From positions 1 to 63,976 of the IMG/VR virus record IMGVR_UViG_3300027740_000001: a stretch of DNA of 63,976 nucleotides, one strand, 5' to 3'. Positions 295-40,456 of the stretch are shown here, one piece after another (the stretch's first letter is position 1; each line of letters opens with the position of its first letter). The position numbers and the translations under genes are program-made. The stretch is from a virus. The notes under the pieces are model-generated. The model had not been told where the DNA came from and searched no databases. It saw nothing but the letters and a program-made list of their open reading frames with translations.

Positions 295-3200
295 ATGTCA
301 ATTCTTGACGAGCTTAACGCCGAACTCGGTCTCGACGAAGAGTCTCCAGCCATAGGAAGTCCGGAAGAACGTGAATTAGCATTAGAAGCTGCCGACCTTC
401 CATCGTTAGTTCCAACAGAAATTTCTGACCTAAGCGCATTTGTCCCACCGGTAGAATCTCCCGCATCTGTTTCGCCTGGTATTATCAATGCCCCGTCTAT
501 TCCAAAACTAACATCTACATCTGCGATAGCTGGATCTGCTCCGGAAACTGGGAAGATCTATCGTACAGCTATGCAAACGCTCGGTCAGTATCCCGACACC
601 ATTGAATCCGCCAACGCTGAACTTGGTGGTGTTGCGTTAGAGCCAAAAAAGCCATACGCAACACCTCTTCCGGAAACCATTCAGGAAAGTAGCATAGATC
701 GTGCAAACCGTGAATTACAATATGGTTCTCCACTAAAGATGGGCGATACAAGAGATACGCAGTCTCCCAGACTCCTGATGCCATCTTTTTATGATACAGA
801 AATACCACCAGATCCAGAAAAGCCTCGAAAAGGTATTATCACGGAAGCCCTGCATGCACCAGTGTACGGTGTTGCGCAGCTTGGTCAGATTGCGGCAGGA
901 CTTACAGCAATAGCCGGTGAAGCGTTTAACTCTGACGCAATCACAGAACTTGCTAAAAACATGTATAATAAATCTACGGAATTCATGGAACCGTTTAAAC
1001 CAACGGTTCAGGACATCCGTGATATAGGTGGTATTGGTGATGCTACGCGATGGGCTGTGTCATCAATCGGTCAGATGCTTCCGTTTATGATCGGTACAAT
1101 GGGTGCCGGTGCTGCTATTAAAACGCTAATCACACATACCCTCGGTAGGTCAATTGCAAGGAAAGCTGCTACCACAGCAATTTCAAGAGGATTGGCCGAC
1201 ATGTCGGTTAAAGAATCAATCGGAAAGGCAATGACCGATCTTGGCATTAAGGCCGGCATGGGTGGTATGGCTGCTGCTACCATTGGCGCTGAGGCCGGTA
1301 TTATTTCTTCTGACAGACTGACAAACGGGCTAAAAGTTCTATCGTCTGATTTGCTATGGGCTATTCCAGCCGGTATGCTCGATGTTATTCCTGAATGGAG
1401 ATTGGCTTCCAAGCTGAACCTATTCGGTAAGCGTATCTCCAATATAGCGATGCGAGATGGAATTGATGTTGCCAGAAACACTTTTGTAAAAGAATTTGGC
1501 AAGCAAGCACTACTCGAAGGTATAACTGAAGGCTGGCAGGAAATTCTTGAAGAGGCTGGTGCTGGACGCAAGCCATTTACATACGACACAATGTGGCAGG
1601 CCATCAATGCATTTATGGCGGCAGGGCTGGCTGGTGGTGTTATGGGTGCTGGGGTCAATTTACTCACCAGAACCCCATCCACTCCAACCGCTGAAACCAT
1701 TACACCAAAGCTTGGCGAACCTGGGTTTATCGGTCCGATGGTTCCGGGTATCGAAACATATGCACCTACCACGTTAGCTCTTCCACCAGGACAGGGATTT
1801 ACATTAGTTGATAAACCAGGGTCCGTTCTACATAAGGCTTGGAATGTCCCACCAGAAGCTCCCGCTCCAGAAATCTTTACACTCCAGGAAGGTCGTTATC
1901 GTCCACCTGGAAAAGAGCGTCCAACCGAACGTCCCGGATGGATGGGGCCGATGGAAGAATACTACGATATGCTTCGTCCAACCAAGGGTGAAGGGTTTGT
2001 TACCGTACCAACCCGTAAGACACCACCCGCTCCGACAGAGGTTATTTCACGTGGTGCCCAGGATCTTATTAACTCACAAGAATGGGCTCCTCTTCAGGAC
2101 ATGTGGAATAAACTCGTTATGGGTAAACGAGAAACCCCACAATTAATTTGGGGTGGTCAATATCCACAGCACCTATTGTACAACGAACGTGAGGGAGCAC
2201 GTGGATTTCAATCTCCGTGGGTTGATACTGAAATTACAGAGTCTGGACATATAGTTCATACCGACTTTGATGGTGGTAAACTCGAATCGTTATTCGATAA
2301 GGATATGACTGCTGGTACGGAATTTGTTCCGGTGAAATATACTGCCCCGAATGGAGATTCGACTATACTTCGAAAGGGACAGGTGCTTCCACAACCATTA
2401 ATAGATACCATTCAGACCTACCTGTCAACACGTCAACGGGTACTCGGTGAAACATCCATTACCACTAAAGCTCCTCCCCCGCTTGGATTACCAGCACCCG
2501 TTGCAGTTACACCACCAGTTGTTGAAGGACTTATTTATAATGGTATTCAGAATGTTCCTGGTGAACCAGATCTTTATACGTTTACTGAAAAAAGTAGTGG
2601 TGGTACATTTATGACCAAAGATGTTACCACCGAACATCTTATGAGGGAACGTGATCGGGTAAGGAGTGCATTTGAAGAACCAGATGTTAAAGATGCTATA
2701 GATAACGATTTAAAATTCGACATACTAAAAAGTACAAGAGAACAGGCAGGGCCAGCATACGAGAAGTATGGTACTGGTCAAGAAATTTCATACAAAGGTG
2801 AAATCGGATGGAGAATTAACGAGTCTGGTGATACACCAGGAACATGGACAATCTTTAGGTCTGACAAACCGGGTCAGTTGGTCGATGCTAAAGAGAATGA
2901 GATTTCCGTACCACCACGGGAAGAAATTGTTCCGGAGGTGAAAGAAACCGTAGACCGTATTCCTGGTTTTCAAAAGTTTATGGTGTTTTCCGAAGATGGA
3001 CGGCTTAGCTTGCGTGCAGGTTCCGTTGAAGAACAGGTTACCCATCGTGTGGTTGGTGGTCGGATGGAACTTGGTGCTATTTTCGGACTTGTTGGTGAGG
3101 TATGGGTTGATGCACATACGAATGAGGTGTATAGTCTGTCCATGTACGACAGGAAGCTACGCGGTGAAGATGTGCGTGGCATCCCGATGGACAAACTGGA

Positions 3201-6200
3201 TGGAATTCAGGTTGAGGGATGGAAGAGCGAGATTGCAAAGATCGACCCGAAGTTTGATATTAGTGAACGGTTAGGGCCTGGTCCTATCTTCTATAGTCAG
3301 GCAGAACGGGTAATCACAGAAAAAATGTCTGGATCGATGTCGTCTACACAGATAGCAAACATGCTTCGTAATTCTGGTGTTAAGCCAGACGAGATGAGGT
3401 GGACCGGACTTGATGAGCTTCTTAAACAGCCCAAGAATTATACCAAACAAGAGGTGTTGGATTATCTGAGAGAGAGTCAGGTTGAGATAAGAGAGGTTTT
3501 GCATCAAACTGCGGCAGATGGCACTATTACCGGTGAAGAACGTGCCGGCATAATGCCTACTAAGTTTGCACAATGGCAACTTCCAGGTGGAGAGAATTAC
3601 AGGGAGTTGTTGTTGACGATGCCTTATGACAAGCAGATGGAGGGGTATAAAATCGTACATCCTGCACGACAAGGAAACATAGAGTATCGTTCTTCCCACT
3701 GGGATGAACCCAACGTTCTCGCCCACATCCGATTCAACGACCGAGTGGATGCGCAAGGCAAGAGGGTACTCTTCATCGAGGAAGTGCAGAGTGATTGGCA
3801 TCAGGCGGGGAGGGAGAAGGGATATCAAGGCCAACTTCCCAATGGTTTTACTGTACAAAAAGAGCAAAATGCATTCAGGGTAATTTCTCCCGATGGACAT
3901 CCAGTAAGCGGGGCAATGGGGTATACAGAGTCAGAAGCCATTAAGAATTATGGAACGATGAATGCTAATGTTCCCCCTGCTCCCTTCTCCAAAACCTGGC
4001 ATGAGATGGCTATGCGTCGTATGGTACGATGGGCATCAGAGAATGGATATGACAAGATTGCGTGGACTACTGGGGAACAGCAGGCGGCAAGGTATAATTT
4101 GAGTAAACAGATTGATAAATTGGATTGGAATAAGAAAGGGGATATTTATCAGTTAATTGCCAGCAGGGACGGGAACGTAAAATTGGATGAGAGCGTTCCA
4201 CTTGGGAAATTAGCAGATTTCGTTGGTAAGGAGGTGGCAGCTAAGATCACAGCAGGAAAAGGAAGTGAGGGTGTTCCTGGTTACATTACAAGTGTCTATG
4301 GAGAAGGGAATGTTGGTAGTCTCTCCAGTCTCGACCTCAAGGTGGGTGGCGAAGGCATGAAGGGTTTCTATGACAAGATCCTCCCAGAGTACATGAATAA
4401 GTTTGGGAAGAAGTGGGGAGCTAAGGTTGAAACCATTAACATAAATACCGGTCAACTTAGAACACCTGCCGAGTCTCCGTTTGAAGAAAAATGGCCTGGA
4501 GGTAAAACAGAAAAAGTTCATTCCCTCGACATCACTCCCGCCATGGCCGAATCAGTTCTCCAGGGTCAACCGATGTTCCGTACTGGTCAACCAGTAACCG
4601 GTATCACAAAGGAGCAAGCATGGCAAGTAGTAAACGACCTCCAACTCAAAATACCGCAAGGTACATTACGGTTTGAAATCTTAAACTCAAAGGACGAGAT
4701 TCCTCCAGAGGTAATGCGAAAACTTGCTCGTGCCCCAAGTCCAAGATCGCGTGGAATGTATGTTAGGTCAGACCCAATTCCGATGGTGTATATATTTGCA
4801 AACAATAACGCAAACGCTGCAGAATTAGAGAAGACAATATTTCATGAAACATTGGGCCACTTCGGGTTCGAAAGATTAGTTGGACCAGAACGCATAAAAG
4901 CCGTTACAAGGATGGTTCTGGATACCTACGGACACGAAGAGCTTGGTTATCTCTACCGAAGGTACGGTGTAACTCCCGGAACAAAGGATGGTGACTACGT
5001 TGTCTCACTCGAAAAGATTGCAGAAATTGCCGAGACCGGATCTAACCCTACATTATGGCAGCGTATCGTTGTATGGTTCAAGGAAATTATGGCAGACATA
5101 TTTGGCAATGAGGCTGTTGGTAAGCTAACGGAAGACGAAATAAAGGTCTATCTGTGGAGATCCCGTGAACTAATTCAGCAGCAAAACGTTCCATCGATGG
5201 GGCAGGTTTATAACTCAATGACCAAGCTTATATCCATGCGTATGTGGAACATGCAACTTCCAGATGGACCTACAGGTGTTGGTTCGTTCATGCGTGAAGA
5301 CTCATCTCCATCTGACGAGAATACTGCACGAAACCTTGGTGGGTTCATGTCATGGTTTCGCGCCCACAAAGAACGTAATAAAAACTTTGGGTATGGCGTA
5401 TTAAAAGATCTCGGTATTGTCGAAGCTATTGGGTCTCTTCCGCATTGGATTTCAATGAAATTTCCATCGTTCAAAAGCGTTGTAAGCGTACAATGGGATA
5501 GGGAAGATAAGCGTAACCGTGACAGGCTTCACTTACTACAAGATCCCAGCACAAACGCTGGGGATAATCCATACATAGCACAGAAAAATACTGAAGCTAT
5601 TGACAAGATTGTAGTATGGTCCGACCAAAATGATACCTACCTACAAGATGATCAGCTTCAGGGCAAATCACGAGAACTAAATGGTCGCAACCTTACAACC
5701 AAAGAGGTTTCTGCATACCACGGATGGAAAGCTGGGTTTGACCGTGCTGTAAGTTATGCCATCGATAAGCTTCGCCAATCAGCCACGAAGCTTTACTCCG
5801 ATCAACCATGGTTCGAACAATTTAAAGGTGTGATTGACAACACCATAGATCAATCTACCGTTGTGCTCGATCCAGATCAGCTAAAGGATTTTCAGAAGGC
5901 TATTACAAAAACCGCTGAACGTATGAATCGTATTGCAGAACGTGAAAAACAATTAAAGTCAATGAACTTCTATGTACCTCATATTCGCGGTAGGGGTGAA
6001 TATGTTGTACGTGTGTTTGATACAGATGAGAATGGTAAACCGGTTCGTGTTTGGGTAGAACGATTTGAAAATTCAACAAAAGCCGAAGCTGGACGTATCA
6101 GGCTAAAAGCAGATTACGCTGGGCTCGCTATCGAAAAAACATACGAACCGCGTACAAGTGAGTTTGTGTATGGTGGCTTAGACGTTCCGGCTATGGAAGC

Positions 6201-7986
6201 ATTTCTGGAAAAAGCCACAGAGAAGGCTAAGGATAAGTTTGGCGTTGACGAAACTGCTGTTGATAAACTTATGGATGCCGTATATAAGGCCATCGACGAA
6301 GAGATTATGGCACGCGGGTTCAGACAACACTATATTCATCGTCACCAGGGAAGGGTTATAGGTGGGTATCGTACCGAAGGTCTTCATCAAGTATTCTTCG
6401 ACTACATGTCAGGCCTTGCCGGTAGCATGACGAAGCTCGACGCAACCTATGATTTTCACAAAGCGCTTCAGTCTATTGATAAGGTGAATGAACGTGGTGT
6501 ATATGAATATGCTACACGATACGTTCGTGATATGTTGCGTAATAAGGATGCAATGGACAGAAAGTTAAACGCATTCAAAACAATTCCGTATGCATGGTAC
6601 CTGTCTGCAAATCTCAGGCTCGCCGTTACACAGATGTTCCAGAACGCAGTTACAGCATACCCGATCCTGGCAAGGTTGCAACAGGAAAGCGGAGTTAAGG
6701 GAAGTGCAGCACTTCGCCTGGAAAAAGCCATGCAGGATATTACCAAGTATTCTGCGGGCATGAAGGGGGCAGTTTCGGAAATAGAATTAAAAATGCTTCA
6801 GGATGCTTACGAGCAGGGTGAAACACTGGCGAACTACATCAACGAGATGAAGGGTAAGGTAGAGGGTAATTGGGCTAAGACGTATTTTATGAAGCTTCTT
6901 GATGTTGTGTCTATCCCATTTGCAGGTATGGAACGGTTCAACCGCAGAACATCTCTCCTTGCTGCATTCAGAATGTATACGGAGGCTGGAAAACCATACG
7001 GAGAAGCATTTGAACTTTCAAAGGAATTCGTTCGTCATGCACATTACGCATATGGCCTAAGCAATTTTCCGCAACTGATGCGGGATGGAACACCATTCTC
7101 GAAGATAGCTGGTATGGCGTATGTGTTTAAAAGCTTCCCTCACAACTATGTACTATCTATGCTACATTTTGCCAAGGATAAGGATGGAAAACTCGCGCTC
7201 GGTGTCATGATGCGGTCGATAGCGATGCTGGCAATCCTTGGAGGCCTTACAGCCGTACCGTTTCTCGATGACATTCTTGAGGAATACGAACAACTATCGG
7301 GAGATCCCGTTAGGTCCAAGATGCGAATTGCCATGAAGAAGTACGGTGGTGACATGCTTGGACAGGTAGGCATGGAAGGTTTACCAGCGTTGGCTGGAGT
7401 TGACATGTCGGGAACCGTAAAGATGCAAATACCGATCCCCGGAATAGGTGAGTTCGATCCAAGTACCTTCACCATGGGGGTTTGGGGTGGACTGATCGAC
7501 AAGGGCAAACGTGCTATAGAGTTTGCGTCCGATAGCCAATGGGCCAGAGCAATCGAGGCCGGAGCACCAGTTGGTGTAGAAATGATGCTTAAGGCTCGCA
7601 GGATGGCCAAGGAGGGCCTTAAAACTGCTGGCGAGCGTGACATACTGGATGTTTCCGGAAAGCCCATTATGCCCACAATGTACGAGACTGGAGCCCAGGT
7701 AGCTGGGTTTAGGCCAGAGAGAATTGCCGAGGTTCAAAAGGAACGCCGGGTAGCCCAGAATATTAAGGAAAGGTTTTCTCGGCAACGAGATGATATCAGA
7801 AAGAGACTACGGAGAGCATCTACGCAAAAAGACTTCGAAGGTATAAGGAAAGATATCGAGAAGTATAATCTTCACGTTATGAAATACAGAGGTGTAATAC
7901 CAAGGATTAGTTCACAATCACTTAAGTCTGCGCTCAAACCAGAAACAGGATATATGAAGTATGGTATGGTAGAAGGGGAGTTTTAA
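295..7986 (+). CDS. Giant 2563-aa polyvalent virion/ejected protein: Gly/Ala-rich membrane-helix region, HExxH metallopeptidase-like module, PLxRFG-like C-terminal domain
   Basis: Uninterrupted ORF whose ATG lies 3 nt after the previous stop. HETLGH is at 4843..4860 and EEVQSDWHQ at 3781..3807. YVPHIRGRGEY at 5971..6003 resembles the PLxRFG signature. Hydrophobic Gly-zipper stretches occur in aa about 255-470 and near the C-terminus. It is the last gene of the structural block. Confidence 0.85.
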   Translation: MSILDELNAELGLDEESPAIGSPEERELALEAADLPSLVPTEISDLSAFVPPVESPASVSPGIINAPSIPKLTSTSAIAGSAPETGKIYRTAMQTLGQYPDTIESANAELGGVALEPKKPYATPLPETIQESSIDRANRELQYGSPLKMGDTRDTQSPRLLMPSFYDTEIPPDPEKPRKGIITEALHAPVYGVAQLGQIAAGLTAIAGEAFNSDAITELAKNMYNKSTEFMEPFKPTVQDIRDIGGIGDATRWAVSSIGQMLPFMIGTMGAGAAIKTLITHTLGRSIARKAATTAISRGLADMSVKESIGKAMTDLGIKAGMGGMAAATIGAEAGIISSDRLTNGLKVLSSDLLWAIPAGMLDVIPEWRLASKLNLFGKRISNIAMRDGIDVARNTFVKEFGKQALLEGITEGWQEILEEAGAGRKPFTYDTMWQAINAFMAAGLAGGVMGAGVNLLTRTPSTPTAETITPKLGEPGFIGPMVPGIETYAPTTLALPPGQGFTLVDKPGSVLHKAWNVPPEAPAPEIFTLQEGRYRPPGKERPTERPGWMGPMEEYYDMLRPTKGEGFVTVPTRKTPPAPTEVISRGAQDLINSQEWAPLQDMWNKLVMGKRETPQLIWGGQYPQHLLYNEREGARGFQSPWVDTEITESGHIVHTDFDGGKLESLFDKDMTAGTEFVPVKYTAPNGDSTILRKGQVLPQPLIDTIQTYLSTRQRVLGETSITTKAPPPLGLPAPVAVTPPVVEGLIYNGIQNVPGEPDLYTFTEKSSGGTFMTKDVTTEHLMRERDRVRSAFEEPDVKDAIDNDLKFDILKSTREQAGPAYEKYGTGQEISYKGEIGWRINESGDTPGTWTIFRSDKPGQLVDAKENEISVPPREEIVPEVKETVDRIPGFQKFMVFSEDGRLSLRAGSVEEQVTHRVVGGRMELGAIFGLVGEVWVDAHTNEVYSLSMYDRKLRGEDVRGIPMDKLDGIQVEGWKSEIAKIDPKFDISERLGPGPIFYSQAERVITEKMSGSMSSTQIANMLRNSGVKPDEMRWTGLDELLKQPKNYTKQEVLDYLRESQVEIREVLHQTAADGTITGEERAGIMPTKFAQWQLPGGENYRELLLTMPYDKQMEGYKIVHPARQGNIEYRSSHWDEPNVLAHIRFNDRVDAQGKRVLFIEEVQSDWHQAGREKGYQGQLPNGFTVQKEQNAFRVISPDGHPVSGAMGYTESEAIKNYGTMNANVPPAPFSKTWHEMAMRRMVRWASENGYDKIAWTTGEQQAARYNLSKQIDKLDWNKKGDIYQLIASRDGNVKLDESVPLGKLADFVGKEVAAKITAGKGSEGVPGYITSVYGEGNVGSLSSLDLKVGGEGMKGFYDKILPEYMNKFGKKWGAKVETININTGQLRTPAESPFEEKWPGGKTEKVHSLDITPAMAESVLQGQPMFRTGQPVTGITKEQAWQVVNDLQLKIPQGTLRFEILNSKDEIPPEVMRKLARAPSPRSRGMYVRSDPIPMVYIFANNNANAAELEKTIFHETLGHFGFERLVGPERIKAVTRMVLDTYGHEELGYLYRRYGVTPGTKDGDYVVSLEKIAEIAETGSNPTLWQRIVVWFKEIMADIFGNEAVGKLTEDEIKVYLWRSRELIQQQNVPSMGQVYNSMTKLISMRMWNMQLPDGPTGVGSFMREDSSPSDENTARNLGGFMSWFRAHKERNKNFGYGVLKDLGIVEAIGSLPHWISMKFPSFKSVVSVQWDREDKRNRDRLHLLQDPSTNAGDNPYIAQKNTEAIDKIVVWSDQNDTYLQDDQLQGKSRELNGRNLTTKEVSAYHGWKAGFDRAVSYAIDKLRQSATKLYSDQPWFEQFKGVIDNTIDQSTVVLDPDQLKDFQKAITKTAERMNRIAEREKQLKSMNFYVPHIRGRGEYVVRVFDTDENGKPVRVWVERFENSTKAEAGRIRLKADYAGLAIEKTYEPRTSEFVYGGLDVPAMEAFLEKATEKAKDKFGVDETAVDKLMDAVYKAIDEEIMARGFRQHYIHRHQGRVIGGYRTEGLHQVFFDYMSGLAGSMTKLDATYDFHKALQSIDKVNERGVYEYATRYVRDMLRNKDAMDRKLNAFKTIPYAWYLSANLRLAVTQMFQNAVTAYPILARLQQESGVKGSAALRLEKAMQDITKYSAGMKGAVSEIELKMLQDAYEQGETLANYINEMKGKVEGNWAKTYFMKLLDVVSIPFAGMERFNRRTSLLAAFRMYTEAGKPYGEAFELSKEFVRHAHYAYGLSNFPQLMRDGTPFSKIAGMAYVFKSFPHNYVLSMLHFAKDKDGKLALGVMMRSIAMLAILGGLTAVPFLDDILEEYEQLSGDPVRSKMRIAMKKYGGDMLGQVGMEGLPALAGVDMSGTVKMQIPIPGIGEFDPSTFTMGVWGGLIDKGKRAIEFASDSQWARAIEAGAPVGVEMMLKARRMAKEGLKTAGERDILDVSGKPIMPTMYETGAQVAGFRPERIAEVQKERRVAQNIKERFSRQRDDIRKRLRRASTQKDFEGIRKDIEKYNLHVMKYRGVIPRISSQSLKSALKPETGYMKYGMVEGEF

Positions 7987-22891: not shown

Positions 22892-23080
22892 ATGAACGAA
22901 AAGAAAGCCAAGCGACTACGCAGGGAATTGTTCACTCATGATCAATGGTTGTACGAGAAGGCTAACGTTAAGTATGTGCACGCCATAGATAACCGTGACA
23001 ACGAACTTCCGTTTATCATTCGTACATCTGCCATGCTGAACAAGTATCGTGAGAATAAGAGATTGAGCTATGGACATTAA
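22892..23080 (+). CDS. Small basic protein (62 aa)
   Basis: ORF in a co-directional string that overlaps the integrase start. Confidence 0.5.
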   Translation: MNEKKAKRLRRELFTHDQWLYEKANVKYVHAIDNRDNELPFIIRTSAMLNKYRENKRLSYGH

Positions 23081-23867
23081 GGCTATCGTTGATCGATACA
23101 TTCTTGAACTCCAAAAGAAGAACCCGGCTACTCTGTCCCAGTTATATAGATTCATTCTATTCTTTTCTGATATGGACACGGTATCCAAGGAAGATGTAAT
23201 GGACTACATTATAGCCAGGAGACCAGCGGTCAAGCCGTCTACCCTTAACCGTGAGATCACAATTATGAAGCAATTGTTCAGGTGGATGTTAGTACGTGGA
23301 TACATCGACAAAGATCCGTCCGTAGGCATAAAGTACGAGTCCGGGGTGGCTAAGAGGGTGCGGCATATCACAACAGAAGAGGAAGGCCGGCTTATATCAG
23401 AATGCCCTGCCTGGTTACAGCCGATCATCCAATTTGCCACCTCGACCGGTATGAGACGTGGGGAGATCGTGGGTCTGCTGAAGTCAGACGTGAACCTGAA
23501 TGATAAGACGGCTACGATCAGAACATCGAAAAACGGGGAACCGCGGGTTATACCGTTGACGAAGCGCGCCCTCGATGCTGTTGCGGCTACCATCTCGAAG
23601 GGAGATAGGTTGTTCGGGGGTAAGAATGGGGAACCGATTGTGATGTCGAACCTGGAGTACAATATTAGGTCTGCAGCTAATCGTGCAGGAATACATGATC
23701 TACACTTCCACGATATGCGCCATACGTTTGCAACTCGGCTGGTTCGTGCCGGGGTTGATCTATATGCAGTGCAATGCTTGTTGGGACATAAAGGACCAGC
23801 CATGACACAGAGATATAGCCATCATGACATAGGATCGCTGAGGAAGGCTACGGAGAGCGTTATGTGA
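23070..23867 (+). CDS. int: Tyrosine recombinase/integrase, short XerC/D-like form
   Basis: The catalytic signature is present: GMRRGE (Arg I), HFHDMRHTFAT (H-x-x-R), LLGH, and RYSH (Tyr). At 265 aa it has no long N-terminal arm-binding domain. Confidence 0.85.
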   Translation: MDIKAIVDRYILELQKKNPATLSQLYRFILFFSDMDTVSKEDVMDYIIARRPAVKPSTLNREITIMKQLFRWMLVRGYIDKDPSVGIKYESGVAKRVRHITTEEEGRLISECPAWLQPIIQFATSTGMRRGEIVGLLKSDVNLNDKTATIRTSKNGEPRVIPLTKRALDAVAATISKGDRLFGGKNGEPIVMSNLEYNIRSAANRAGIHDLHFHDMRHTFATRLVRAGVDLYAVQCLLGHKGPAMTQRYSHHDIGSLRKATESVM

Positions 23868-25018: not shown

Positions 25019-25249
25019 CTAATCATATTTGGATCTTGAAGAAGGTTCACTTGACACAAAAAATGAAAGTTCAAAAAATCCATTTTGAATCATCTTCTTT
25101 AGATACTCCAACTCTTCTGATTCAAGTTTAATACTTATCCTTTCCTCATGAATTTCATCGGAAGCATCTTTGATAATTGCATCTGGAAATATCTCTTTTA
25201 GTTCATTTAAATATTTTGCACCTCCGTAGATTAAATCGAATATTTTCAT
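25019..25249 (-). CDS. Hypothetical acidic protein (76 aa)
   Basis: ATG follows AGGAGGGAAG. Confidence 0.6.
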   Translation of the reverse strand: MKIFDLIYGGAKYLNELKEIFPDAIIKDASDEIHEERISIKLESEELEYLKKMIQNGFFELSFFVSSEPSSRSKYD

Positions 25250-25260
25250 CTTCCCTCCTT

Positions 25261-25680
25261 CTAATTCAAATGTGTCTTATGGTCTTTTTCCCAGTGTTCA
25301 CCAAGTCTTTCTAAGATTTCTCCAAAACTACCTCCCTTTACTTTTTTTCCACAAAACTTACATTCAGCTTCTCCGTTATCAGCAATAAGTCGAAATGTTT
25401 CTTTGACTACAGAAATCAGTCTTTGGGTATTTTGTTGTTTTATTCTTGCACATCTCTTGCAAATCCCTTCCCATGCAGAAAAGAGATTCGGGGGCTTTCT
25501 TCCTAGCTGTATATCTTCTTTTAAAACAAAATCTCCACACCTATCACAGATTGCCCAATCATTTGGACATTTACCACATTTTTCACAGTGGGGAGAAAAG
25601 ACATTCATGGTGAATCCACTTTCTCCCCCACAAGGACATTTCCAAACATAACAACTTGTACTCATCTTCCCCTCCTTCAA
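25261..25680 (-). CDS. Multi-zinc-ribbon protein with C-terminal CxxC..H..H module
   Basis: It has at least five CxxC-type pairs. The C-terminal ETFRLIADNGEAECKFCGKKVKGGSFGEILERLGEHWEKDH is paralogous to the 27281..27460 product. Confidence 0.65.
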   Translation of the reverse strand: MKEGKMSTSCYVWKCPCGGESGFTMNVFSPHCEKCGKCPNDWAICDRCGDFVLKEDIQLGRKPPNLFSAWEGICKRCARIKQQNTQRLISVVKETFRLIADNGEAECKFCGKKVKGGSFGEILERLGEHWEKDHKTHLN

Positions 25681-26117
25681 TGTGGATGGGTTAGCAGGAT
25701 TGGTATGGATAAGTCCTGTTTTATGCCCTTTAAATATTGGGTGTTCCCCTCAGCTTCGCCATCACCCATCCATTTTTCCTTCTCTGAGAGGAGGGAGAGG
25801 AGGCCATCAATATCTTTTCTCACTTCTGCAATATAGGTAGAACGATTTAATTTGTTATTAATATCCTTCACCTTATCCATTAGTGCCTCCTTCCTTTCTT
25901 TTTCTAATTCTTCTGGTAATATTTGCAACAGAATTTCATATCTTGCCTCCTTCTCCCTCGAGGTTCGACGAGATTCAAGCCACGACACCTTCATTAATCC
26001 GATCTCTACCTCAGAATGTTGATCTTCTCGATAGTTTTTTGCAAGCCAAAAATAGAAATCCCTCTTGTCTTGTTCATACATTTCTTGTTCGTCCATTATA
26101 TCCTTTTCCTCATTCAT
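25677..26117 (-). CDS. Glu/Lys-rich coiled-coil protein; the frame stays open upstream to an ATA at 26273, adding a Zn ribbon
   Basis: The ORF-track ORF starts at ATG 26117. The same frame encodes TCPKCNST..YRCDNCGW between 26118 and 26273 with no ATG, GTG or TTG. Confidence 0.6.
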   Translation of the reverse strand: MNEEKDIMDEQEMYEQDKRDFYFWLAKNYREDQHSEVEIGLMKVSWLESRRTSREKEARYEILLQILPEELEKERKEALMDKVKDINNKLNRSTYIAEVRKDIDGLLSLLSEKEKWMGDGEAEGNTQYLKGIKQDLSIPILLTHPH

Positions 26118-26265: not shown

Positions 26266-26421
26266 TCATTTATGGGGTCTCCTTCTCTTCTTAAGGATTT
26301 TTAAACAATTCTTACAGGTGACTTTTTTATTAAATACAACAACTTGATCTGGAAATAACGTTAAACCACAAATCGTATCTCCCATATAATAAAACTTTCC
26401 AAGTCTTTTATGCAGTTTCAT
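26266..26421 (-). CDS. Small basic protein (51 aa) with C..CxxC
   Basis: Manually found ORF: ATG at 26421 after AGGAGGGAAG, stop TGA at 26266..26268. Confidence 0.5.
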   Translation of the reverse strand: MKLHKRLGKFYYMGDTICGLTLFPDQVVVFNKKVTCKNCLKILKKRRRPHK

Positions 26422-26437
26422 CTTCCCTCCTTAGATG

Positions 26438-26463
26438 GATGGGTGCCCGCCATCTCACCCTGG
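26438..26463. repeat. Copy 1 of a 26-nt perfect direct repeat GATGGGTGCCCGCCATCTCACCCTGG
   Basis: It is identical to 28931..28956. Counting flanks, the match is 33 nt with 2 mismatches. GATGGATGGGTG recurs at 26434 and 28967. Confidence 0.9.
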
Positions 26464-26497
26464 GCGTTATAATAATCTTTTTAGATTATCCTTTATT

Positions 26498-27460: not shown

Positions 27461-27576
27461 AACCAATCACTGGAGTTGACGGCCAATAGAACAGGATTCC
27501 CCCACCTCACCTGCCCCGTATCACTCTGATGAGCGTAGACTTGCCTACCCTCCATTGGCCGCAACTCACTTTGTCG
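27461..27576 (-). promoter_or_regulatory. Structured G+C-rich intergenic element A (homologous to element C at 29573..29669)
   Basis: The shared ends are AATCACTGGrGTTkACnnCCAAT and CATTGG(G)CCGCAAyTC. An 8-bp helix pairs CGGCCAAT (27480..27487) with ATTGGCCG (27554..27561). Confidence 0.5.
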
Positions 27577-28138: not shown

Positions 28139-28303
28139 TTATACTTCATTAGAAATTTCCCGTAGTAATGTGAGTGCTCGGTCAATGTCTTCACTTCCAA
28201 TTGCACCCATGTGGTGCTTATTGTCTTGAACATGAGGGCCAGAAAGTAAGTCTATTATGCTTTTTATGTCTTCTGCTAATTTTTTAACTTGTTCGTTATC
28301 CAT
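28139..28303 (-). CDS. Small helical protein (54 aa)
   Basis: ATG at 28303 lies 6 nt after AGGAGG. Confidence 0.5.
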   Translation of the reverse strand: MDNEQVKKLAEDIKSIIDLLSGPHVQDNKHHMGAIGSEDIDRALTLLREISNEV

Positions 28304-28406
28304 TGTTTGCCTCCTGAATTTTAATAAAAAGTATAACCTATCACTCAACCGGACGGTTAAGGGCTGTCACGGGTTCATTGGCGGTAGCCCGCCGGTTAGT
28401 TTTGTG

Positions 28407-28718
28407 TTAGCACCACTTCTTGTCATGTGCCTCTATTGCTGCAACTGCAAGTGCAGCAACCTTCACCATATTTTCGCGGAAATTCTGCACATCTCTTTCG
28501 TTTCTGGCACATTTGTCGGCTGCTCGTCCAAGATATGCGCTTATATACGCTACCCAGTCGTTCCTGGTATTTTTCTGGTCAAAAATATTTGTGTCACCAC
28601 CATGCTTACATTGCGCAACCTGTCGTATTCTTTCATTCAGAACATCTTCCATGGCTTGATCCGTAAATTCACCGTCCCTTGCCGATTGTTCATAATCTTC
28701 CTTTGTCCGGTTTTCCAT
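28407..28718 (-). CDS. All-alpha hypothetical protein (103 aa)
   Basis: ATG follows AAGGAGG. It has the conserved-looking helices ERIRQVAQ..WVAYISAYLGRAA..MVKVAALAVAAIEAHD. The family was not identified. Confidence 0.6.
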   Translation of the reverse strand: MENRTKEDYEQSARDGEFTDQAMEDVLNERIRQVAQCKHGGDTNIFDQKNTRNDWVAYISAYLGRAADKCARNERDVQNFRENMVKVAALAVAAIEAHDKKWC

Positions 28719-28767
28719 TATGATACCTCCTTAAAAATTTGTGCTAACCAGCGGGTCGAGGCGAGCG

Positions 28768-28911
28768 TCAATGTCCCGCTGTAATAAGTTCCTTCTTGCC
28801 ACACTTGGGACAGATAAACCATTCCTTTTGTTCTGCCGTCCCCAATGCTGGAAAGTTAATCCAATAAATCATAACCATTCCACAATTAGAACATCTCCTT
28901 AGTGCTTCCAT
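28768..28911 (-). CDS. Zinc-ribbon miniprotein (47 aa)
   Basis: Manually found ORF: ATG at 28911, containing CSNCG...CPKCG. Confidence 0.45.
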   Translation of the reverse strand: MEALRRCSNCGMVMIYWINFPALGTAEQKEWFICPKCGKKELITAGH

Positions 28912-28930
28912 ATCTTCTACCTAATGGTCA

Positions 28931-28956
28931 GATGGGTGCCCGCCATCTCACCCTGG
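28931..28956. repeat. Copy 2 of the 26-nt perfect direct repeat
   Basis: It is identical to 26438..26463. Like copy 1, it lies 17-20 nt upstream (minus sense) of a small-gene ATG. Confidence 0.9.
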
Positions 28957-29161
28957 ATGTTATATGGGATGGATGGGTGAGCAGGATTCCCCACCCTGCA
29001 CCTATAGACGGTTTTCGCAGTGAGTTTCCACCTGTCAGGGTTGGTGTTGCTCTCACCGTCCCGACCACTCAAAACCTCACCCATTATTGGGATAGCCTTA
29101 CCTGACACTGACATGCCATCACCCATCCCATTATCAATGCAAAATTGCCTGTTAATCAATA

Positions 29162-29316
29162 GTTAGCACTCACGGGAAAAGTGGAGGAGTCTCATGCAGA
29201 AACATATGCTTGCCTTTCTTGGGGGAATATCCCTCGTGAGTATTCGTTCCGGACCTACGACCCACTTGCAAGTCACTACACTTCTACACTCCACGACTCC
29301 TCCCGTCAGTGCTAAC
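29162..29316. ncRNA. 155-nt imperfect long hairpin (structured RNA or MITE-like element candidate)
   Basis: GTTAGCACTCACGGG (29162..29176) pairs with CCCGTCAGTGCTAAC (29302..29316) in 14 of 15 positions. This stacks on GGAGGAGTC (29083+100: 29183..29191) pairing with GACTCCTCC (29295..29303). No credible ORF is present. Confidence 0.4.
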
Positions 29317-29370
29317 CATTCACTGAAGTCCGACCGTCAAAAGACGGCGGCTTAGTTTAAATGTTATCCG

Positions 29371-29572
29371 TCAACCCCAAACATGTACGCCACTCGGTTT
29401 ATCGTAAACTTCATCTGGAGTGCCACTAATATCATTAGCGAGAGTCTTTTTTTTCATAATCCTCTGCATCACGAATAATAACTTTTCTGGCTTCATTTTC
29501 ATTCTTAGCTAACGCAACAGCTATTCCAGGCATGTAATCACTCAATACGTTTCTCCATACGAACATTTTCAT
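29371..29572 (-). pseudogene. Small gene interrupted at an A8 run (45-aa ORF that continues in another frame)
   Basis: The ATG at 29572 follows GGAGG, and the ORF stops at 29435..29437. Removing one A from the run at 29447..29454 gives ..EDYEKKTLANDISGTPDEVYDKPSGVHVWG with a stop at 29371..29373. Confidence 0.5.
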
Positions 29573-29669
29573 ATCAACCTCCATGTGGCGGATAATAAAT
29601 CACTGGGGTTTACAACCAATGTACCAGTGTTCCGGGTTAAAGGGATGATACCCATCATTGGGCCGCAAT
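29573..29669 (-). promoter_or_regulatory. Structured intergenic element C (homolog of element A)
   Basis: Both ends are shared with 27461..27576. Internal helices pair CACTGG (29601..29606) with CCAGTG (29624..29629), and ATGAT with ATCAT (29644..29657). Confidence 0.5.
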
Positions 29670-30071
29670 CTATGCATAATCTTCCACCATAAACAATCTA
29701 CCCTCACCCGATAGTTCTCTATATTTATCTATCAACTTTTGAGCATGGTAACCAGGCAGGTTTCTTCTTGGGATAAACCCATCCGGTGTCATTACGTGTC
29801 GATCAATAGTTATATACACACCCTCTGATGGAGAAATTTTCATAGTGTCCTGGTCAATGGTAACATCACGTTTAGGTAGGCCCCTAACCCACCCCTCTTC
29901 ATCCATTAACAATATTGTTCCGGCAATCATTGAACACATATCATTATCTGGTATGCTACGCAAAAACATATCAACCGTCATGTGTGGACCTATTGCATCT
30001 ATTAAGATAGCGGCCTGACCACGCTGTAGGTGTTTGGGCTGAACTTGATCACTGGATTCTACGTAGCTCAT
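29670..30071 (-). CDS. Hypothetical protein (133 aa)
   Basis: ATG at 30071 follows GGAGCGAGG. Confidence 0.6.
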   Translation of the reverse strand: MSYVESSDQVQPKHLQRGQAAILIDAIGPHMTVDMFLRSIPDNDMCSMIAGTILLMDEEGWVRGLPKRDVTIDQDTMKISPSEGVYITIDRHVMTPDGFIPRRNLPGYHAQKLIDKYRELSGEGRLFMVEDYA

Positions 30072-34225: not shown

Positions 34226-34434
34226 GTTACCATGCGCTCCCTTCGTTCATGGTGCGTTACTATCAACATGCAGTATTGGTTTTTCTGGCAGAACTCTTCA
34301 CCTAACACTGTCTTAATGTAACTCCTAATAGATGAGTTCGTTATTCTCTTTGGGTTACTTCTGCGCTCAGGTAATACAGCAACCTTATCGTATTCCTTAG
34401 CCTTAGAATCGTATAGGGATATCTCGTATCTCAT
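34222..34434 (-). CDS. Hypothetical protein (70 aa)
   Basis: ORF-track ORF with GGGAGG upstream. Confidence 0.55.
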   Translation of the reverse strand: MRYEISLYDSKAKEYDKVAVLPERRSNPKRITNSSIRSYIKTVLGEEFCQKNQYCMLIVTHHERRERMVT

Positions 34435-34470
34435 TTTGTCTGACCTCCCGCTTAGGATATCACTGAGTAA

Positions 34471-34500
34471 CCCGGTCTTAGATTAACAGGTAAGACCGGG
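34471..34500 (-). terminator. Perfect 10-bp stem hairpin after the first leftward gene (terminator/processing-site candidate)
   Basis: CCCGGTCTTA - 10 nt - TAAGACCGGG lies 10 nt after the stop at 34511. The U-tail is weak. Confidence 0.4.
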
Positions 34501-34510
34501 TTAACCCGTA

Positions 34511-34669
34511 CTACCCGAAAGCGATCTCACTATCACTATCAACCCCGGTTATAGCCGTGGTATCACGTGACGGAATCAACACAAACACGCATTGATTCTC
34601 TTTCGGGTTCAGACGTTTAAACAATGAATATCCGATACCGTTTACCCTAAAGTCTTTTAGCCAAATCAT
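34511..34669 (-). CDS. First gene of the leftward arm, 52-aa protein
   Basis: Manually found ORF: ATG at 34669 lies 5 nt after GGAGGG. The product is MIWLKDFRVNGIGYSLFKRLNPKENQCVFVLIPSRD... Confidence 0.45.
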   Translation of the reverse strand: MIWLKDFRVNGIGYSLFKRLNPKENQCVFVLIPSRDTTAITGVDSDSEIAFG

Positions 34670-40291: not shown

Positions 40292-40456
40292 ATGCCCGTT
40301 AAGATCAGAAAACTGAAAAGTGGGAAGTATCGCGTTTCTACTCCAACCTCGGTTCATGCCAAGGGTACCACAAAGAAGAAGGCTAAGGCACAGCGGACAA
40401 TTATTAACATGCATGAAGCTGGGGTTGTACCGAAAGGTGGATGGAATAAAGAATAG
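40292..40456 (+). CDS. Small basic protein (54 aa), MPVKIRKLKSGKYRV...
   Basis: Manually found ORF that ends 1 nt into tRNA-Tyr. Confidence 0.45.
   Translation: MPVKIRKLKSGKYRVSTPTSVHAKGTTKKKAKAQRTIINMHEAGVVPKGGWNKE

Follow-up and report, generated by a model that had tools for sequence, protein, structure and literature searches.

A Structured Non-coding Gap in a Phage Small-Gene Block Contains a Candidate RNA Family

The window analyzed here, the 63,976 nt of the IMG/VR virus record IMGVR_UViG_3300027740_000001, looks like a phage genome and contains a minus-strand block of small genes from about 24 to 37 kb. Within this block, a gap of 459 nt (28912-29370) runs from the stop of an upstream gene (29371) to the start of a zinc-ribbon gene (28911). 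The public gene calls of the assembly L001, with one 69-aa call set aside, leave no gap as large elsewhere in the portion of the block present in L001. The gap is non-coding, and one of its structured segments, a five-helix core of 158 nt (28971..29128), probably represents a candidate new small phage RNA family of two members, as judged from sequence comparison. Our favored reading, to which we assign a probability of about one half, is that the gap is a non-coding part of a minus-strand polycistronic transcript, serving the 47-aa zinc-ribbon gene as an extended 5′ leader and acting in cis as an array of RNA modules. Unless noted otherwise, the structural features described below lie on the minus strand.

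A Five-Helix Core With One Relative

The core is closed by helix P1 (29128-29119 / 28980-28971), inside which lie P2 (29118-29113 / 29108-29103), P3 (29100-29095 / 29075-29070, plus 29091-29089 / 29082-29080), P4 (29061-29055 / 29012-29006, with inner helices 29050-29048 / 29019-29017 and 29046-29043 / 29032-29029) and P5 (28999-28993 / 28987-28981). The original prediction, made from the letters of the window, had already noticed the outermost pairing: TCACCCATCC lies at 29119-29128 as described, and its long-range partner GGATGGGTGA is present at 28971-28980 instead of 28969-28978. The related word TCACCCAT likewise exists, at 29077 rather than 29076. The G-rich words of the core (GGGUGA, GGAUGGG) and its C-rich words (UCACCC, CCAUCC) permit competing pairings; thus, single-sequence predictions vary with the chosen boundaries.

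A comparative view of the fold comes from a second phage fragment. The core interior (29118-28981) is 87% identical over 141 nt to positions 2157-2297 of L022, which together with L023 makes up the pair of contigs carrying the protein call P0081 (JGI 3300049911 and 3300049914). In L022, the core copy is intergenic and sense-oriented, between a 58-aa gene and a gene for a 44-aa membrane peptide. A tblastn search of all L022 open reading frames (ORFs) against the window returned nothing beyond the core and a second non-coding island, element F, and the proteins flanking these two islands are unrelated between L022 and this phage. The core therefore appears to be portable, with the same interior found between different small genes in an otherwise unrelated phage fragment and closed there by different arms.

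When both core copies were aligned over their full P1-to-P1 length, the consensus comprised 8 helices with 48 pairs, and every cell (100%) was paired. The P1 sequences differ, being GGAUGGGUGA/UCACCCAUCC here and GGCGGCCAAUAG/CUAUUGGCCGUC in L022, and both pair. P2 shows an A-U to G-C change and P4 a U-A to C-G change, two P3 pairs are changed on both sides, P5 is invariant, and no pair is broken. Altogether 11 pairs are changed on both sides (7 in P1 and 4 in the interior), and slid controls, in which partners were moved by 1-3 columns, were 32-43% paired with 1-2 compensatory pairs. When the 19 interior substitutions were placed at random 200,000 times, the probability of no broken pair was 4.5e-5 and that of four or more compensatory pairs was 2.5e-5; these figures are optimistic, as the structure was derived from the same two sequences. 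Depending on the copy, the core contains 7-9 G.U pairs, and its reverse complement is less stable by 12-15 kcal/mol. Given how few members the family has, this comparison offers good evidence of a selected RNA fold. Covariation, by which the original prediction had proposed to judge the whole stretch, is found in this one sub-domain, the only one with a relative.

Searches for additional members returned none. A covariance model of the core (R1) recovered only its two training sequences among the contigs gathered for this analysis, and an IMG/VR pattern scan with a core 20-mer gave 0 hits. A metagenome scan with a core 18-mer gave 12 hits, all of them chance matches and none with flanking core, in a collection that did not return L022 or L023 either.

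The distance from the core's end to the following start codon is 16 nt in L022 and 59 nt in this phage. When the 5′ strand of P1 was blocked, the accessibility of the ribosome-binding site (RBS) changed from 0.38 to 0.50 in L022 and from 0.53 to 0.53 here. A switch that sequesters the Shine-Dalgarno sequence (SD) was consequently rejected as the function of the core, RBS accessibility being lowered in neither copy.

Coding Potential of the Gap

Every minus-strand frame of the gap contains at least two kinds of stop codon. A recoded gene is ruled out, as no frame has a single stop-codon type. The G+C-rich character noted in the original prediction is present as a modest excess (0.47-0.52, versus 0.36-0.47 nearby). 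The prediction had also described the stretch as free of SD-preceded ORFs, which is not strictly true, although the non-coding reading behind it stands: the GGAGGAG/CTCCTCC helix places GGAGGAG before a 43-aa GTG ORF (29294..29163, minus strand) and before a 53-aa ATG ORF (29194..29355, plus strand). Another in-element frame has entered public annotation. In L001, a 69-aa ORF (29126..28917, L001 4593-4802) is called as a gene, and the real 47-aa zinc-ribbon gene (28911..28768) is uncalled.

These ORFs, namely the 69/80-aa frame (29159..28917) and the 43-aa and 53-aa ORFs, raise the alternative that the stretch encodes one or more small proteins or is a decayed gene. In addition to the public call and the two GGAGGAG sequences, it can be said for this alternative that the 69-aa frame is also open in L022. 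The remaining evidence opposes it. The 69-aa ORF has no SD, whereas the neighboring gene starts that were examined have AAGGAGG, and in L022 the corresponding frame is continuous with the following gene. As for the 43-aa and 53-aa ORFs, their SDs lie inside the most stable helix, GGAGGAG/CUCCUCC, with pair probabilities of 0.88-0.99. None of the 69-aa, 43-aa and 53-aa products has a Pfam or PADLOC match. Among 1.84 billion representative proteins searched, the sole real relative of the in-element 80-aa ORF, and the single one above noise, is P0081. This 99-aa call (L022 2161-2460) is a gene-call artefact in which read-through of the element is fused to the next gene, that of the membrane peptide. 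Of four substitutions in the conserved blocks, one is synonymous and three are nonsynonymous, and two of the four make up one compensatory pair. Moreover, tblastn similarity between L022 and this phage occurs in several frames and on both strands, with other frames or the opposite strand scoring equally well or better. The original prediction would have yielded to a normal protein gene at this place in related phages; the nearest relatives, L005/L006, lack the whole 4.3-kb module, and the L022 homologue is intergenic. The 69-aa call is spurious, and we regard a protein-coding origin of the stretch as highly improbable.

Fold Strength and Modular Layout

For the minus-strand RNA of 28912-29370, the predicted energy is -177.7 kcal/mol (z = -6.0), a value that 0 of 100 shuffles equaled; this supports the structured RNA proposed earlier, on the strand taken to be transcribed. 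The plus strand gave z = -3.9. Across 56 windows of 459 nt on the minus strand from 24.3 to 37.4 kb, the mean z was -0.79 (sd 1.39), and the gap was the extreme at -5.84. The fold signal of the gap vanishes in 150-nt windows because its helices span 140-160 nt.

Folding gives four or five independent local modules, so that the gap RNA is modeled as a row of separate units and not as a single 457-nt fold; the picture of one large RNA built of nested long-range helices was not borne out. Module 1, a small hairpin directly 3′ of the upstream stop (29322..29356), has a CCGUC-UUUU-GACGG core at 29347-29334, pair probabilities of 0.9-1.0 and no U-tract. It had been described on the plus strand as CCGTC-aaaa-GACGG at 29333..29346, one position from its actual place at 29334-29347. 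It is terminator-like on the plus strand only, and such sites are no commoner than in shuffles. Module 2 is a rod-like hairpin of 163 nt with 62 predicted pairs (29158..29320), followed by a linker hairpin, CAGGCAAUUUUGCAUUG (29135..29151, pair probabilities 0.7-0.9), and by the core as module 3. Module 4, just before the zinc-ribbon gene, is a 34-nt repeat predicted to fold into the hairpin AGAUGG-CGGGCAC-CCAUCU (28931..28964). Its second copy lies at 26438-26471, and both copies stand just 5′ of a small-gene start codon. As stated in the original prediction, 26 nt of the repeat (28931-28956) match 26438-26463 exactly, and the 23-nt repeat core occurs 2 times against 0.00 expected.

Transcription signals within the block were scanned as well. 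The promoter scan, which covered sigma-70-like sites, found 34 where 37.2 were expected from shuffles; terminator-like sites numbered 9 against 10.7 expected, none of them a sense-strand site inside the element. With no excess of either signal and no sense terminator in the element, no autonomous transcription unit is evident.

The Rod-Like Hairpin

The rod is the module that the original prediction described most closely, as a 155-nt imperfect hairpin. Its arms GTTAGCACTCACGGG (29162-29176) and CCCGTCAGTGCTAAC (29302-29316) and the stacked helix strands GGAGGAGTC (29183-29191) and GACTCCTCC (29295-29303) are all located where they had been placed. The base of the rod consists of 13 + 11 bp of near-perfect duplex, with one unpaired residue per strand between the two segments and pair probabilities of 0.98-0.99, and the arms carry GUUAGCAC / GUGCUAAC. 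The whole rod folds at -72.3 kcal/mol, with z = -6.6 on the minus strand versus z = -4.6 on the plus strand and helix probabilities of 0.88-0.99. Eight G.U pairs on the minus strand correspond to A.C mismatches on the other. As predicted, its basal duplex would suit RNase III, whose processing sites have about 20 bp or more of near-continuous duplex. As for a possible signal recognition particle (SRP) RNA, the apical loop AGGUCCGGAA shares a 10-nt identity with the SRP RNA motif, which was judged to be chance because no SRP model matched.

The original prediction also raised the possibility of a miniature inverted-repeat transposable element (MITE). Bacterial MITEs and palindromic repeat elements include the Correia, ERIC and RUP types. 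The rod resembles such elements in its long imperfect terminal inverted repeats (29158-29190 / 29288-29320; 33 nt, 82% complementary, 97 nt apart), the longest inverted repeat in the 13.6-kb block. It is also intergenic, lacks a convincing ORF and would fold as a hairpin in mRNA. It differs from them in that its G.U-rich pairing favors one strand, in the absence of a target-site duplication (the minus-strand flanks ...CAGUGAAUG and UAUUGAUUAAC... have no common direct repeat) and in being single-copy in the window. No relative of the rod was found, and a second copy is missing from the window as well as from 50,697 phage records, 72,556 plasmids and, as judged with its terminal-repeat pattern, IMG/VR. 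The MITE reading was thus not upheld.

A short word shared by the rod arms recurs nearby. The original prediction placed GTGCTAAC correctly at 28741 and GTTAGCAC at 28397, although the latter lies at 28406. Together, GTTAGCAC/GTGCTAAC occur four times in 900 nt (28406-28413, 28741-28748, 29162-29169 and 29309-29316) in alternating orientation, bracketing a 103-aa gene and the long hairpin, with one other site in 64 kb (19925).

Recurring Arms and a Mosaic Junction

Element F, the second island shared with L022, is a non-coding stretch of about 70 nt (28341..28409) that is 84% identical to L022 1519-1584. In both phages it begins at the UAA stop (UAACACAAAACUAACCGG plus hairpin) of unrelated genes, the upstream gene here being the 103-aa gene, and ends before the SD of unrelated downstream genes. 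The core and element F occur in opposite order in the two genomes. None of the elements occurs around five homologues of the 103-aa protein (L003, L004, L036-L038).

The two types of P1 arm and the P5 hairpin also recur around other interiors, 5′ of other starts, in copies designated B, C and E here and D in L005. Copy B (25683..25773) has closing arms AUGGAUGGGUGAUG / UAACCCAUCCA around a 68-nt interior and lies directly 5′ of an SD and the AUG at 25666. Copy E (27475..27565), a strongly structured intergenic domain, combines an L022-type closing stem, GUUGCGGCCAAUGG / CUAUUGGCCGUCAAC, with a P5-like GGGGAAUCCUG hairpin and a shorter interior. It looks like a shorter relative of the core, matches L022 2286-2311 at 92.6% and gave z = -5.6 in a 150-nt window.

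Comparison with the nearest related phage, L005/L006 (80-89% DNA identity over shared genes, mosaic), places one of these copies at a junction. L005/L006 lacks positions 29566-25264 (4.3 kb) and carries neither the element nor a gene at the element's position. The L005 junction has a 110-nt hairpin, copy D, whose arms AUGGAUGGGUGAUG / UGUCACCCAUCCAU match the core-closing arms and copy B (25773-25683). The core-closing arms and the arms of copies B and D each lie directly 5′ of a AAGGAGGG SD, and the small hairpins have a 3′ arm, ACCCAUCC, with complementarity to the SD GGAGGG. RBS accessibility in copy D falls from 0.89 to 0.35 unpaired once the 5′ arm is blocked.

Two further observations concern the same region. 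L005 10498-11157 replaces the 4.3-kb block with about 650 nt containing two unrelated small genes, and the right-hand mosaic junction of L005 is inside the cassette that joins a hairpin to an SD. A 17-nt SD/start cassette, AAGGAGGGAAGAUGAAA (minus strand), is present in identical form at 25244-25260, at 26416-26432 and at L005 11161-11177, where it precedes different small genes and recalls the start-associated sequences discussed below.

Scans of IMG/VR with the 23-nt repeat, with P5 plus P1 type II and with element F all gave 0 hits. The arm pattern gave one hit in IMG/VR, L007, consistent with chance, and 14 scattered hits in 185,579 genomes, in unrelated taxa, without SD/start context and near chance expectation. 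Three of these 14 chance-level hits (L008, L010, L011) are cyanobacterial hairpins in which G-rich heptamer-like repeats (GGGTGAG, GGATGGG) and their C-rich complements are similar to the arm repeats.

Genome Context

The window encodes a tyrosine recombinase/integrase (23070-23867) and, on the plus strand, a replication/recombination module. Its TerL is 35-39% identical to the TerLs of several phages with short genomes (32-49 kb), and the phage is not T4-like. A 2563-aa ORF at 295-7986 has no Pfam match whatever. In the region of 24-37.5 kb, the only minus-strand ORFs of at least 150 aa are a 161-aa ORF and one for a 199-aa DUF7178 protein. ARAGORN reported a single hit, a tRNA-Tyr at 40456, and no tRNA-like gene inside the gap. 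Elsewhere, a hairpin with 29-nt arms (34452-34519) lies in another structured intergenic stretch (34425-34574, z about -3.6) and is kept in L005 at 2578-2652.

The stop of the upstream gene (29371..29584, minus strand) forms the 5′ edge of the non-coding stretch. Its N-terminal part matches phrog_34232. The gene is interrupted by a T8 run on the plus strand (29444-29451; A8 in the coding sense), which leaves ORFs 29584..29435 and 29502..29371, and the same run is present in L001 and L002. Fusing the two ORFs gives no longer phrog_34232 match; the split may be a frameshift, may have arisen in assembly or may mark a genuine 49-aa gene. The downstream gene (28768..28911, minus strand), for which the structured stretch is the 5′ leader, encodes the 47-aa CxxC...CxxC zinc-ribbon protein; its zinc-ribbon Pfam matches are weak, all under curated cut-offs.

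Two public assemblies, L001 (ENA ERZ27256988) and L002 (Logan SRR10376091), are 100% identical to the window over this region and therefore add no variation. The element and its surroundings had no blastn match in known phages (50,697 records) or plasmids. Searches of IMG/VR with the neighboring proteins gave no close relatives, and exact-protein look-ups gave identical copies only, in L001 and L002. L022 matches cultured phages only in a 120-nt segment (5749-5868) of a DNA methylase gene, where its identity to two Microcystis phages is 72.6%; this is a weak hint of a cyanobacterial host range for that contig.

Comparison With Known RNA Families and Phage Repeats

The original prediction could assign the stretch to no known family, and neither could a scan against Rfam 15. 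There were 0 matches at the gathering threshold in the whole window and 0 at E ≤ 10 in 28900-29380, with only noise in 28300-29700 and in L022 1480-2360. Several specific classes were considered and rejected. For group I and group II introns, no model matched at E ≤ 10, and the flanking ORFs each have their own stop or start; that these ORFs share a frame has a 1-in-3 chance. No reverse transcriptase, as expected of a retron, is encoded nearby, the neighbors giving no reverse-transcriptase hits. For a type I toxin, the small ORFs lack a family hit. A riboswitch expression platform was set aside because RBS accessibility is essentially unchanged and the downstream genes are unrelated; with respect to a riboswitch aptamer, the core shows five helices and 11 compensatory pairs, from two sequences only.

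Orphan structured RNA motifs in Rfam include manA, wcaG, ROOL and GOLLD. Like the orphan RNAs of phages and metagenomes, the core is a conserved multi-helix non-coding RNA in a phage or prophage context that is recognized by covariation. Unlike them, it matches no Rfam 15 model and has two known members, and it is much smaller than ROOL or GOLLD.

Among repeats at phage gene starts, the start-associated sequences (SAS) and extended start-associated sequences (ESAS) of Cluster K mycobacteriophages are conserved at the translation starts of a subset of small genes, and their function is not known (PMC3203893). SAS are 13-bp asymmetric motifs located 3-8 bp upstream of start codons, with 11-19 copies per genome, and ESAS, just upstream of the SD/start motif, consist of imperfect inverted repeats of 17 bp separated by 4-13 bp (PMC3203893). 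Inverted repeats just 5′ of an SD/start are likewise seen in copies B, C and D and at the core's 3′ end, and both systems accompany genes of different families. However, the arms here are 10-14 nt long and enclose interiors of 62-138 nt with structure of their own, the sequences are unrelated, and the AAGGAGGGAAGATG cassette, confined to a 4-kb sub-region, has 2 exact copies, or 4 when up to 2 mismatches are allowed.

Another comparison is offered by the promoter(early) stem-loop (PeSL) cassettes of T4-like phages, composite terminator/promoter stem-loop motifs among variable small ORFs (PMC2839356, PMC4122927) that are exchange points between otherwise unrelated sequences (PMC4122927). The elements described here resemble them as short, conserved and repeated intergenic stem-loop cassettes, and perhaps also in coinciding with indel or replacement boundaries of related phages: in a single comparison, the junction that follows L005 position 11146 was located in a cassette of hairpin and SD with homology to copies B and C. 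The differences are the lack of an enriched promoter or terminator signal, the lack of a conserved promoter in the shared sequence, and the compensatory changes in the 158-nt core, which point to selection at the RNA level. Neither SAS/ESAS nor PeSL includes a covarying domain of 158 nt. The element is best classed as a new structured RNA motif within the broader group of conserved intergenic RNAs in phage early regions.

Proposed Role and Alternative Explanations

The sense orientation of the element in a tightly packed operon and the absence of a promoter or terminator excess favor a cis role on a polycistronic mRNA. We infer that the gap is transcribed, that it acts in cis and that it influences processing or translation. 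According to this proposal, the array would act on the mRNA through compact folds placed directly 5′ of the RBS of the next cistron. The folds may serve as modules for processing, stability or insulation, keeping the next RBS outside the structure, and the small hairpins may be translation-control modules. The rod, with about 24 bp of near-perfect basal duplex, would be an RNase III-type substrate. Going further, the core and element F may together represent a novel kind of portable RNA in phages, a cassette able to pass between otherwise unrelated early regions, to be re-closed by whichever complementary arms are available and to carry out a specific molecular function such as ligand or protein binding, self-processing or RNA-based control of early genes; we put this forward as a tentative possibility.

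Several points weigh against the cis-acting array. The core family consists of two members, and for the rod the evidence is thermodynamic alone. In this phage's copy of the core, the single-sequence fold prefers another pairing in the P4 region (-63.0 kcal/mol; the consensus gives -56.2 kcal/mol). Recombination at flanking repeats could have produced the P1 "helix swap". The genes 3′ of the two core copies, one for a zinc ribbon and the other for a two-helix membrane peptide of 44 aa, are unrelated, which argues against a gene-specific regulator. Lastly, the RBS-accessibility switch is absent in both core copies and was seen only in hairpin D of L005.

Alternatively, the core, and perhaps the rod, could be a stand-alone RNA and not a passive cis module: cut from the operon transcript, it would act in trans or bind a ligand or protein. 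Possible forms are an aptamer, a ribozyme, an immunity-type antisense RNA and a protein sponge. Nucleotides in the core's junction and internal loops are almost invariant and its stems vary, as in aptamers and ribozymes, and the element stands beside unrelated genes in two unrelated contigs. The G-rich GGAUGGGUGA, moreover, recurs with its complement just 5′ of several SDs, which could support RNA-RNA targeting of the kind found in phage P1 c4 and phage P4 CI. Yet no promoter or terminator brackets the element, no Rfam relative emerged even at E ≤ 10, the downstream genes have no coherent function, and the family has two known members; we consider a stand-alone RNA an unlikely explanation. A different account would place the selected feature in the DNA, with the repeat cassettes as PeSL-like recombination points or the 163-nt rod as a MITE-like insertion, and RNA folding as a by-product. 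It fits the loss of 29566-25264 from L005/L006 with a junction in a cassette homologous to B and C, the identical 17-nt cassettes shared with L005, the joining of two P1 arm types to different interiors, the opposite order of the islands in L022 and the precedent of PeSLs as exchange points between unrelated sequences (PMC4122927). It does not fit the compensatory changes in the core interior and the many G.U pairs, which point to selection on the RNA fold of one strand. Sigma-70-like promoters that do not exceed their frequency in shuffles, arm-pattern scans at chance level in both the genomes and IMG/VR, and a rod with neither target-site duplication nor further copy in the collections searched also speak against it, and we consider such a DNA-level explanation improbable.

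Significance

The early regions of phages are crowded with small genes whose function is unknown, and intergenic RNA in these regions is rarely examined. In the present case, public gene calls annotate an RNA element as hypothetical proteins, a 69-aa protein here and a 99-aa fusion (P0081) in L022. The two non-coding islands are the only sequences common to two otherwise unrelated phage fragments, and one of them keeps its pairs by compensation. If this is confirmed, the core would be a new structured RNA motif for phage biology, and the findings would suggest that regulatory RNA modules, and not genes alone, are exchanged between phages as cassettes.

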